Positions 12,213-14,137 of a stretch of 64,000 nt of DNA are shown here, piece after piece (within the stretch, counting starts at the first letter, position 1; each line of letters starts with the position of its first letter). The stretch is from assembly GCA_001791305.1 (NCBI GenBank), contig MGEI01000004.1, positions 129,804 through 193,803 of the forward strand, given 5' to 3'. This DNA comes from Candidatus Uhrbacteria bacterium RIFCSPLOWO2_01_FULL_47_17 (GTDB taxonomy: Bacteria; Patescibacteriota; Patescibacteriia; UBA9934; GWF2-40-263). The translations under genes and the position numbers were made by a program. The notes below the pieces were generated by a model, which searched no databases, was not told where the DNA came from, and worked only from the letters and a program-made list of their open reading frames with translations.

Positions 12213-12336
12213 TGTCAGACTATTGACAAAATCGTCTTTTTCAGGTAGTGTATCGTCTTCGTCTTAAGATCGATCTGCGCCGTGCAATCGACTCAAAAGG
12301 CGATAACCCGGTGCCACAAGCACCACGGAGTTCGAC

Positions 12337-12480
12337 ATGGCTTACACCTGCAAATGCGGATATTCGACCCAGAAGGGCGGCAAGGCCGTCGACAAGCACG
12401 AGCGGACCTGCGGTGCGAACAAGAAGGCCAAGGAGTTCCGCGGCCACCTGAAGTCCGCCAACAAGAAGAAGGCGAAGTAG
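12337..12480 (+). CDS. small Cys/Lys-rich protein (47 aa), GC3-rich, possibly zinc-binding
   Basis: GGAG SD 7 nt upstream of ATG 12337; MAYTCKCGYSTQKGGKAVDKHERTCGANKKAKEFRGHLKSANKKKAK; about 85% G/C at third codon positions with purine-rich first positions (strong 3-periodicity) in an otherwise AT-leaning genome; below the track's 60-aa cutoff. Confidence 0.35.
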   Translation: MAYTCKCGYSTQKGGKAVDKHERTCGANKKAKEFRGHLKSANKKKAK

Positions 12481-12559
12481 CTCGTTGCCAGTTCGGTGTT
12501 GTGTGCGGTTGAGGCTTTTGTTCTCGCCTGACGCTCTCGACGCCGTTTACGCCCCACCC

Positions 12560-12918
12560 ACCGTGGGTGATTGAAAAACTTGATCGCATCCCACCCTCGC
12601 AATTTGAATCGTTTGGCGCTTGGTGGACTTGGATGCGCTATGATCAGGTGGCTGCGATTCTGTGTGGGCACACAGGTCCAGCCTCTCCCGGCGAACGCTC
12701 ATCGATTGGATGTGTCGCTTGTCGGGCAGAACGAGAGTGTGAAAACGCTCAAACCCTCGAGCATGCATCTCATGCTCACCCAGCCGTAGATCTGCTCGTC
12801 GCATGTTGCGATTGAGCGTGAAACGGTCGCCTGCGTCCGGTGGCAATGCCCTCCCCACGGGTCCACTGGCCAGGCCGAACGCTCAACCTGATCCTCATCC
12901 GATCAGGTTTTCTTTTTC
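12560..12918 (+). ncRNA. candidate structured RNA (island A), paralogous to element at 40315-40800
   Basis: GC-rich segment with no periodic coding signal and overlapping ORFs in several frames on both strands; contains GAACGAGAGTGTGAAAACGCTCAA (12729-12752) plus a degenerate copy (12812-12832); ends with a cctgatcctcatccgatcagg + T-run terminator homologous to the one at 40768-40800. Confidence 0.3.
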
Positions 12919-12923
12919 ACAAC

Positions 12924-12950
12924 AAAACCGCTCGTGTGAGCGGTTTTTTT
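12924..12950. terminator. bidirectional terminator (serves dus on - strand)
   Basis: aaaaccgctc-gtgtg-agcggtttttt hairpin flanked by A/T runs. Confidence 0.6.
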
Positions 12951-14016
12951 ACTTTGTCAGTTTCATACGTTCACCCGCATTTGGATGCGCGGCGTCTCTG
13001 TGTGCGATCGCGTCTTTCATGTCTGGGTCGAGGCGCATCTCTTCGAGAATGGTTTCGACTTCCTCTCGAGAAGGCGCGGTGTGCAATCGTTCTTTGTATT
13101 TTTTTGCGCCATCTAACCCTTTCAAATACCACGTAAGATGTTTGCGAAATGTTGTCACGGCTTTCTCGCCGTACTGTTCGATGTGTAATCCTAAGTGAAA
13201 ACGAATCGTGTCCACGCGTTCTTCGATCGAAATCACTTTTGGCGATTTGCCTATGAGCATTTCTTCGATCTGTGCAAAAATCCACGGATTGCCGAGAGCT
13301 CCGCGTGCGATCAGAATTCCGTCGCACTTAGTGTGCTCGAGCGCTTTCATGGCGAGTGGCGCTGTGAACATGTCGCCGTTTGCGAGAATCGGAATCGACA
13401 CGGTCTCTTTGAGCTTGCGAATCATTTCCCAATCCGATTCTCCCGAGTATCCCTGCATGCGCGTTCGGCCATGGACAGTGAGAAGATCGGCACCGGCTTC
13501 TTCGAGAGCCTTCGCAAAGGCAAAGCACTCTGTCGGATCACCCCAGCCGAGTCTAATCTTTACTGAGATGGGTTTCGAGGTAACAGCCTTCATGGCTTTG
13601 ACGATTGCGGCTGCGCGTTCCGGTTCCTTCATGAGTGATGCACCATTGAAATTACAAACAAGTTTGTAAACCGGACAACCCATGTTGATGTCGAATCCCT
13701 CGGGATTATGCTCGCGATCGATGATTCTCGTGGCCTCGGCCATCACGTCCGGATCACTTCCGAAGATTTGCTGCACAAGCGGACGCTCATCCGGATGAAT
13801 CTCCGTCATGTCGAGCGTCTTGTTATTTCCGCGAACAACCGCTTCTGCAGAGACCATTTCGCGAAACATCACAAAATTTGCGATGCGCGTTTCTACGTCC
13901 GCACCAGATTTACTCATGACATATTTTACGGTACGACAAAACGCCGAGTCGGTCATGTCGGCCATCGGTGAAAGCGCAATGATTGGGCGTGGAAGGTTTT
14001 TCCAGTTTAATTTCAT
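12949..14016 (-). CDS. dus: tRNA-dihydrouridine synthase (DusB-like)
   Basis: TIM-barrel Dus motifs ALSPMADMTDSAFCR, NMGCP, KIRLGWGDPTECF; ATG at 14016 (MKLNWKNLPRP); the upstream in-frame extension that covers a repeat is rejected. Confidence 0.85.
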   Translation of the reverse strand: MKLNWKNLPRPIIALSPMADMTDSAFCRTVKYVMSKSGADVETRIANFVMFREMVSAEAVVRGNNKTLDMTEIHPDERPLVQQIFGSDPDVMAEATRIIDREHNPEGFDINMGCPVYKLVCNFNGASLMKEPERAAAIVKAMKAVTSKPISVKIRLGWGDPTECFAFAKALEEAGADLLTVHGRTRMQGYSGESDWEMIRKLKETVSIPILANGDMFTAPLAMKALEHTKCDGILIARGALGNPWIFAQIEEMLIGKSPKVISIEERVDTIRFHLGLHIEQYGEKAVTTFRKHLTWYLKGLDGAKKYKERLHTAPSREEVETILEEMRLDPDMKDAIAHRDAAHPNAGERMKLTK

Positions 14017-14027
14017 ATGTTGTGTTT

Positions 14028-14052
14028 GTAGGGGTGCCCCTTGTGGGTATCC
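14028..14052 (-). repeat. 25-nt near-palindromic repeat, copy 1 (inverted orientation): rc = GGATACCCACAAGGGGCACCCCTAC
   Basis: Read directly; inverted partner of copy at 14138-14162; third copy at 31370-31394. Confidence 0.85.
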
Positions 14053-14137
14053 ATACGATCGGATATGAAAGATATCCCAAAATTGTTGGATGCACAAGGG
14101 ATGCATACCATGTTACACTATCCGCATCGTAAACAAT

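Follow-up and report, generated by a model that had tools for sequence, protein, structure and literature searches.

The bacterial RNAs CsrB, RsmZ and CrcZ each carry a short constant element in variable number, diverge rapidly elsewhere, occur as several paralogs and have their own strong promoter and terminator. Here we describe two GC-rich non-coding islands, A and B, in a 64,000-nucleotide stretch (the window) of contig MGEI01000004.1 of Candidatus Uhrbacteria bacterium RIFCSPLOWO2_01_FULL_47_17. Judged from their sequence, the islands are probably (at roughly 85%) two paralogous genes of a new structured non-coding RNA family that is restricted to a subclade of Candidatus Uhrbacteria. Like CsrB, RsmZ and CrcZ, the predicted RNAs are independent units with a repeated short element, fast divergence, several paralogs and no co-oriented downstream gene, and the A/C-rich single-stranded stretches that follow their hairpins (AACAACAC, AACAAUAC) recall the 'CA' motifs of CrcZ. 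They differ in the element itself, which is GAACG(A) beside a GNRA-type hairpin rather than GGA in hairpin loops or AAnAAnAA, and in the spacers, which are folded domains of 110-350 nt with covariation of their own. When the linkers were compared directly with CrcZ, these two and AAACAAAUC proved A/C-rich, but most are not exact AAnAAnAA and there is no Rfam match to CrcZ. Membership of the CsrB/Rsm group, for which the mark is multiple GGA loops (clan CL00106), was rejected: the junction loops are GAAA, GCAA and GAAUA, and the islands have no Rfam match.

Other described systems share part of this design. The OLE, GOLLD, ROOL, HEARO and raiA RNAs are likewise long, GC-rich relative to the genome, highly structured and found in one lineage, with neighbours that are uninformative on function; each of them, however, has one fixed architecture, whereas the RNAs described here string exchangeable modules together through a constant junction, their length ranging from 0.32 to 1.3 kb among close relatives. 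CRISPR arrays have regular repeats of 23-50 nt, unique spacers of 25-70 nt and usually cas genes. CRISPR, TIGR and ToxI arrays resemble the islands in that a short, hairpin-containing repeat divides variable segments in one transcript, but theirs are 36-nt tigRNAs, 25-70-nt spacers and 36-nt ToxI repeats, while the segments here are 110-350 nt long, folded and conserved. We rejected a CRISPR array specifically: the repeats of island B are spaced by 134 and 165 nt, the would-be spacers fold and are conserved between genomes, and there is no cas gene among the neighbours. TIGR arrays, found in candidate phyla radiation (CPR) bacteria and in phages, are built of 36-nt units (edge, spacer A, loop, spacer B) with box C/D motifs and an adjacent Nop-domain Tas gene (PMC12045711). 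This identity was rejected as well, with units of 110-350 nt, no Nop/Tas Pfam family among the called neighbours and no RUGAUGA/CUGA pairs seen by eye; indeed, no cas, tas (Nop-domain) or toxN-like gene is found among the called neighbours, and there are no box C/D motifs. Finally, in lambda boxB, a pentaloop adopts a GNRA fold with one base extruded when it is bound by an arginine-rich peptide. The junction hairpins here, with GAAA or a pentaloop (GAAUA, GCAUA, GAAAA) as their cap, might similarly adopt a GNRA fold with an extruded base, but they have no phage context and no boxA, and there are many copies per RNA. The modular, exchangeable build sets the family apart both from sponge or scaffold RNAs and from the large orphan RNAs.

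Anatomy and transcription of the predicted RNAs

The two islands have a GC content of 0.573 (A) and 0.576 (B), compared to 0.46 for the window; an earlier note on this DNA had remarked that they are GC-rich. The near-identical 24-mer that it had reported in both, GAACG(C/A)GAG(C/T)GTGAAAACGCTCAA, is indeed present at 12729-12752, 40411-40434 and 40710-40733, and shuffled sequences give none (chance expectation 0 in 100 shuffles, with up to 3 mismatches allowed). We find that the repeated unit is more than a hairpin: it is a junction, composed of GAACG, a GNRA-capped hairpin and an A/C-rich linker, which lies between variable domains. Every RNA of the family is a series of modules, each with a variable folded domain followed by GAACG(A), the small hairpin and the linker; there are 1 to 6 modules per RNA (0.32-1.3 kb in length), with units of 110-350 nt and no regular period. 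In the module domain, the closing helix has a G-rich 3' strand, and about 2 nt precede GAACG(A), which is predicted to be single-stranded. The junction hairpin has 5-6 bp, starts with GAG and ends with CUC in most copies, and has GAAA, GCAA, GAAAA, GAAUA or GCAUA as its loop, while the linkers after the hairpins include AAACC in addition to those named above. The last module is different: GAACG is followed by 6-9 nt and then by a terminator hairpin, CUCGAUC...GAUCGAG with a run of Us, and the small hairpin is missing. Island B is an exception to this, as its last GAACG (40710) retains the small hairpin and its terminator starts at 40766.

The predicted features of the two islands are as follows; bit scores are those of a covariance model of the junction, and labels such as L004 denote related loci in other genomes.

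12223..12251, + strand: promoter of the island A transcript, with -35 TTGACA at 12223-12228, a 17-nt spacer and -10 TAGTGT at 12246-12251
12481..12884, + strand: island A body, a structured RNA by fold z-score, syntenic homologs (L004, L006-8, L073) and lack of a conserved frame
Island A internal helices, + strand: conserved hairpin 12650-12683; helix closing on GGGCA, ~12687-12728; hairpins 12759-12777 and 12800-12810
12729..12752, + strand: island A junction, with GAACG at 12729-12733, A, hairpin GAGUGU-GAAA-ACGCUC at 12735-12750, then AA; 38.2 bits
12812..12886, + strand: island A extended 3' hairpin, in which UUGAGCGU (12812-12819) pairs with ACGCUCAA (12879-12886) and encloses GCCUG/CAGGC and an apical stem
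12885..12918, + strand: island A intrinsic terminator, stem CCUGAUC/GAUCAGG, loop CUCAUCC, then a U tract
40279..40307, + strand: island B promoter, TTGACA at 40279-40284, 17 nt, TTTAAT at 40302-40307, with TG at 40299-40300
40315..40434, + strand: island B module 1, helix GGUGGG/CCCACC, hairpin GCGCGG/CCGCGU, GAACG at 40411-40415, hairpin GAGCGU-GAAA-ACGCUC at 40417-40432; 40.7 bits
40435..40566, + strand: island B module 2, GAACG at 40545-40549, hairpin GAGCU-GAAA-AGCUC at 40551-40564; 37.1 bits
40567..40757, + strand: island B module 3, GAACG at 40710-40714, hairpin at 40716-40731, hairpin CCUCCC/GGGAGG at 40740-40757; 38.9 bits
40766..40799, + strand: island B intrinsic terminator, CUCGAUC-CUCACCC-GAUCGAG and a U tract, abutting the stop codon of the convergent mutY-like gene

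Island A therefore has one full junction and one extended version, and island B has three junctions. The hairpin of the island A junction keeps its stem through a G-U pair, as had been proposed, with U-G at stem position 4. The degenerate second copy attributed to island A is present but split into TTGAGCGTGAAAC (12812-12824) and GAACGCTCAA (12877-12886), two parts that are able to pair with an inserted helix between them; positions 12877-12881 hold the terminal GAACG, and a third short copy, GAACGCTCA, is found at 12693. The basal stem of this extended 3' hairpin covaries by eye (GUCG/CGAC in L004 and L006), and GCCAGGCCGAACG in the same region is invariant across three genomes. In island B the three copies are as reported, but the one at 40545-40564 is not degenerate; it is a compensated variant with a 5-bp stem and the same GAAA loop. 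The start of island A, previously set at 12560, also had to be revised, as the non-coding stretch begins at 12481, directly after the stop codon of a 47-amino-acid (aa) open reading frame (ORF).

Each island lies between an upstream + strand ORF and a convergent gene: island A is flanked by the 47-aa ORF (12337-12480, +) and dus (12949-14106, -), and island B by a 135-aa ORF (39513-39920, +) and a mutY-like gene (40791-41786, -). The product of the mutY-like gene shows 100% identity to a protein of Candidatus Uhrbacteria bacterium RIFCSPHIGHO2_12_FULL_47_12, and the homologs of Dus also carry the name Uhrbacteria. We rejected a riboswitch or 5' leader, given that both islands end at terminators that face these convergent genes.

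Several signals point to transcription of the islands from the + strand. The minimum free energy z-scores relative to dinucleotide shuffles are -5.25 on the + strand and -2.91 on the - strand for island A, and -6.65 and -4.49 for island B. This stronger + fold, the U-tract terminators, the GNRA loops and the U-G pair of the island A hairpin, which would read A-C on the opposite strand, all favour the same orientation. Homologous terminators had been suggested, and we do find GATCCTCAYCCGATC loops at 12890-12904 and 40771-40785, inside terminator-like hairpins that are followed by U tracts. The loop pattern alone is weakly significant (6 of 100 shuffles yield at least 2 matches); the terminator type CUCGAUC...GAUCGAG plus Us also ends related RNAs in L004, L006, L066, L069 and L073.

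The predicted RNAs accordingly read as + strand units with a sigma-70-type promoter and an intrinsic terminator. The TTGACA-17-TTTAAT promoter described for island B was recovered, and the B-type RNAs of L066, L069 and L092 likewise have TTGACAGA(A/G) with an A/T-rich -10. For the island A transcript, L004, L006-8, L070 and L073 retain the -35 hexamer, its spacing and a -10 of the form TAnTnT. A consensus rule for promoter calling listed neither promoter, being stricter than these matches. As no promoter was found between the small 47-aa ORF and island A, while the promoter of the small ORF is conserved in five relatives, island A is probably co-transcribed with this ORF as the long 3' part of its mRNA.

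Known identities, relatives and covariation

If the islands encoded proteins, one frame should be conserved between genomes. Instead, six-frame comparison shows similarity in every frame, switching along the sequence, and no ORF is conserved, so we consider the islands non-coding and their conservation to be at the nucleotide level. ORFs of 80-130 aa occur inside the islands on both strands and have no Pfam match, and gene callers place inconsistent ORFs on either strand in the islands of relatives. The 3-nt periodicity is weak, in agreement with the earlier note: 1.5-1.7 in the islands versus 2.4-6.9 in the flanking genes.

A divergent version of a known RNA (RNase P, tmRNA, signal recognition particle (SRP) RNA, 6S, 5S or a group II intron), or a protein, is very improbable. 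In its favour are the short RNase P-like strings, the ORFs on both strands, and CGAAC...GUGAAAC, which resembles a conserved stretch of 5S rRNA, where Rfam gives no 5S match. The only matches that Rfam 15 reports at the gathering score anywhere in the window are three tRNAs and a group I intron, and both islands are without a match to RNase P, tmRNA, SRP, 6S or 5S, as the earlier note had judged by eye. Even at E<=10, island B is without a match, island A shows no more than terminator-level noise and the L066 and L069 arrays give nothing relevant. RNase P RNA is recognised by the P4 core GAGGAAAGUCC...ACAGAA... and a P1-P4 architecture; neither island matches RNaseP_bact_a or RNaseP_bact_b at the gathering score or at E<=10, and the resemblance to RNase P once suggested for strings in island B is unsupported. 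ARAGORN reports 3 tRNAs and no tmRNA in the window, and tmRNA, which has no Rfam match either, was discarded. The same holds for SRP RNA, 6S RNA and 5S rRNA, for which no Rfam model matches the islands or their relatives. Group II introns have a 5' GUGYG, a domain V of 34 nt (AGC triad, bulge, GNRA) and a domain VI. The sole group II match, to D1D4-7, has 15.4 bits and E=0.74, lies on the - strand over terminators and has no counterpart in island B, and the junction hairpins, with 5-6 bp and no bulge, are unlike domain V. Moreover, 2-3 paralogs per genome together with absence in close relatives are unlike an essential housekeeping RNA, and the similarity between genomes is independent of frame, with ORFs that are unconserved. 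We found no description of this family in the literature on structured RNAs of CPR bacteria, Uhrbacteria or Parcubacteria.

By following the flanking proteins into other genomes, we found related RNAs at these two loci in another five assemblies of Uhrbacteria, with the following contents.

JAPLZK010000003 (L004, L066): ortholog of island A; two further RNAs at the mutY locus, one of ~0.97 kb with 3 junction hairpins and one of ~0.46 kb with 1
CAYOCD010000003 (L006-8, L011): island A ortholog
L073: island A ortholog with two junctions
L092: B-type RNA of 0.5 kb
L069: B-type RNA of 1.3 kb with six junctions

Other relatives are without the islands. Both the small ORF and island A are missing from L010 and L072; in L070 and L071 the small ORF is kept, but a short terminator stands in place of island A, and L012 has a different gene at the island A site. 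Island B is absent from L068, and the short gap between mutY and rpoD in L091 suggests the same there. From their absence in some close relatives, the predicted RNAs are therefore accessory, with a fast turnover.

In 550 kb of Patescibacteria loci, the junction was found inside these RNAs only, with 18 instances. Over this DNA, the junction covariance model returned its 14 training instances and five more (four at E<=0.02), all five of them in L069, within its one RNA and on its strand; nothing convincing was found elsewhere in these loci. Throughout the window and the 550 kb, the motif is limited to these transcripts and lies on the same strand as promoter and terminator. Repetitive extragenic palindromic and bacterial interspersed mosaic elements (REP/BIME) have many dispersed copies in both orientations, to which miniature inverted-repeat transposable elements (MITEs) add terminal inverted repeats and target duplications; a motif that, in the window and the 550 kb, lies on a single strand and inside these transcripts only led us to reject both identities. 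A Dus-anchored scan of GTDB species genomes gave 57 loci, with island A in the closest relatives only, and the junction model found nothing in the remaining ~50 Patescibacteria loci. The exact window-type 24-mer has 0 matches in genome contigs and 0 in metagenome contigs, because the hairpin sequence differs between genomes and the pattern is too specific. A generalised hairpin pattern gave 16 matches in metagenome contigs, 11 of them inside open frames of at least 250 codons and none with the context of the family. Scans of viral contigs gave one match, in a coding region of a high-GC phage; we took all of these as chance. Nothing matched in blastn searches of phage and plasmid collections.

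Module types are common to different loci and genomes. MAFFT alignments of A with B, and of all four A orthologs, were usable only at the junction, in the 3' domain and at the terminator, the rest being too diverged. Individual modules can be matched: the last module of the L073 A RNA resembles the last module of the first L066 B-type RNA (B1), and modules 2 and 3 of L066 match module 4 of L069. The hairpins of orthologous junctions differ between genomes and are homogenised across paralogs in two genomes; GAGCU-GMAUM-AGCUC describes all five hairpins in JAPLZK, and GAGYGU-GAAA-ACGCUC three of four in the window genome. In L069, the B-type RNA of 1.3 kb also has a very A-rich tract of ~130 nt between its last junction and the terminator (about 6020-5900, - strand), in which the only small ORF is a 21-aa Lys-rich frame that we judged not to be a gene.

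Covariation supports conserved structure, short of proof. The 18 instances of the junction hairpin are 96.6% paired, with double changes in 4 of 5 pairs, and none of 500 shuffles scores as high; pairing falls to 15-49% when the 3' partner is slid. Among the pair types, positions 1 and 3 change from G-C to A-U, position 4 has C-G, U-A and U-G, and the innermost pair has U-A, A-U and C-G. Similar results are obtained for the domains between junctions. The ~300-nt domain found in L066 modules 2 and 3 and L069 module 4 (3 sequences) is 92.7% paired, with double changes in 17 of 60 pairs (0 of 500 shuffles), and the first module of the B RNA (window, L066 and L069; 3 sequences) is 91% paired, with double changes in 8 of 30 pairs (4 of 500 shuffles). 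The null result in Rfam, the folding, the homologs with compensatory changes and the lack of a conserved frame agree with what had been proposed from the window alone, that conservation is at the RNA level and that the islands are candidates for a new structured-RNA family.

Genes and elements near the islands

The small ORF upstream of island A has orthologs or variants that we translated from L006, L070, L073 and L004, and a 5' untranslated region (UTR) at 12259-12336 that contains a hairpin.

12337..12480, + strand: small ORF of 47 aa, Cys-x-Cys...His...Cys with a Lys-rich tail
12310..12324, + strand: 5' UTR hairpin GGUGC-CACAA-GCACC, immediately before the GGAG Shine-Dalgarno sequence of the small ORF

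In relatives, the stem of this hairpin is kept and the loop varies (GGUGU-GAAA-ACACC, GGUGC-GAACA-GCACC, GGUGUG-UAAA-CGCACC). The proteins themselves have either the N-terminus found in the window or a C2H2-like one (MAGRHTC.NKGCRF...H...H), and the KEFRGHLK...KKK tail is common to relatives that carry the island, while the C-terminus in L070 differs. A homolog search of a database of 5.8 billion proteins returned only the small ORF itself, which has a weak Pfam match to DUF1390, below the cut-off.

Right behind the island A terminator, at 12924-12947, is a hairpin AAAACCGCUC-GUGU-GAGCGGUUUU with runs of A and U on either side; it is kept in all relatives, whether or not the island is present, and looks like a bidirectional terminator of dus. 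The mechanically called ORFs of dus (385 aa) and mutY (331 aa) exceed their homologs (about 350 and 297 aa; Dus query coverage 92%), and the true starts are probably internal. In the mutY locus of JAPLZK, a 175-aa gene with no Pfam match on record (L066 4916-5443, -) lies directly behind the second RNA and has the same terminator type at its end (CUCGAUCACCAUGAUCGAG plus Us).

Immediately upstream of island B, a block of ~220 nt (39975-40192, -) is about 90% identical in L066, L068, L069 and L092 and is present also in relatives without island B. Its ends pair as a closing stem of ~19 bp, L066 carries a 20-nt hairpin insertion, and the consensus fold has 66 pairs, 8 of them with double changes. 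A conserved extended -10 (TGTTATAAT or TGTTACAAT) at 40199-40207 reads into it on the minus strand. Rfam at E<=10 gives no relevant match to the block, only RsmW at 17.7 bits (E=0.87); the block is probably a second, separate, unannotated non-coding RNA.

The group I intron in the window (Rfam Intron_gpI, 73 bits, 43660-43929), of ~270 nt, splits a tRNA gene at 43625-43978 (+) in the anticodon loop. ARAGORN did not call the host tRNA. The exons are UCCGAGG...GCUCGCU and UGUAACGAG...CCUCGGAGCCA, with splice sites assigned by eye, and the interrupted gene is most likely a tRNA-Thr(UGU).

Possible roles and significance

The repeated constant junction is a candidate binding site. If the RNA acts in trans, its many junctions might titrate or assemble an RNA-binding factor, in a manner like that of CsrB, RsmZ and CrcZ. 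We propose such a multivalent platform tentatively, as the foremost of the models considered, by analogy and at less than even odds, because a constant single-stranded element is coupled to a hairpin conserved in shape, copy number varies, the remainder evolves fast, there are several paralogs and no gene lies downstream. One could also imagine, as a doubtful extension, a new class of bacterial RNA gene, made of cassette-like arrays that link unrelated structured RNA domains through the constant junction; a dedicated factor would read this junction and either release the domains or assemble them into ribonucleoprotein particles. A speculative candidate for the junction factor is the small Lys-rich zinc-finger protein whose ORF lies on the island A transcript.

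Some observations weigh against a new RNA family of this kind, and against the platform in particular. The family is known from six assemblies only, and here from sequence alone. Covariation comes from 3-sequence alignments or from short hairpins, with structures predicted from these very alignments. Neither a partner protein nor a co-occurring gene emerged, and the domains between junctions are large and conserved in structure, unlike the simple hairpins of CsrB, RsmZ and CrcZ. Homogenisation of the hairpins is not universal, those of L069 being heterogeneous, and it may come from recent duplication or gene conversion rather than from co-evolution with a factor.

Other explanations account for part of the same evidence. 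The RNA could be a polycistronic precursor in which the junction is a signal for endonuclease processing, so that each domain is freed as a small structured RNA, as in CRISPR pre-crRNA, TIGR and ToxI arrays or tRNA operons. Different domain types are indeed strung together and recur across loci and genomes, the junction is the sole constant part and the number of units ranges from 1 to 6, but the units are irregular, at 110-350 nt, and the neighbours at the loci are housekeeping genes with no nuclease gene among them, so that we consider a precursor unlikely. Slightly less likely again is an architecture of RNA alone, a large ornate molecule that folds or multimerises through tertiary or intermolecular contacts of its GNRA-capped hairpins, in the manner of ROOL, GOLLD or OLE, and acts as a structural particle or a ribozyme. 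Most junction loops are GAAA or GCAA, or pentaloops (GAAUA, GCAUA) that could mimic GNRA, the fold is very stable, the larger domains are structurally conserved, and these are long RNAs for a small genome. However, no canonical 11-nt GAAA receptor (CCUAAG/UAUGG) was found, and the number and content of modules vary freely among close relatives, some of which dispense with the RNA, which is a poor fit to one three-dimensional architecture.

There may, alternatively, be no function in trans. Island A could be a cis element, a 3' UTR that stabilises or terminates the transcript of the small ORF, or the islands could be selfish, REP- or MITE-like hairpin repeats that spread by duplication and gene conversion at permissive sites between genes. 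Presence and absence do differ between close relatives, hairpins are homogenised within a genome, island A is directly 3' of an ORF and the loci lie between convergent genes. We nevertheless regard this possibility as about as improbable as an RNA-only architecture: B-type RNAs are preceded by conserved promoters of their own and by no ORF, compensatory changes keep helices in domains well beyond the repeat, the motif is limited to these transcripts in one orientation, and there was no sign of terminal inverted repeats, of target duplications or of transposase genes. If the islands proved to be unexpressed or selfish repeats, they would be of minor interest.

Genomes of CPR bacteria (Patescibacteria) are about 1 Mb in size and gene-dense, and to our knowledge their repertoire of non-coding RNAs is almost unexplored. 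This subclade of Uhrbacteria appears to devote 0.32-1.3 kb per locus, at no fewer than two loci, to folded RNAs that turn over fast and yet keep one junction. If the RNAs are expressed, they would constitute a new orphan family of large structured RNA and a case in which to study module shuffling and homogenisation within a genome, and the junction, GAACG with its hairpin, would be a precise handle toward an interacting factor. If the cassette-like arrays were real, a genome-reduced CPR symbiont would be diversifying its RNA functions quickly, by shuffling modules between loci.

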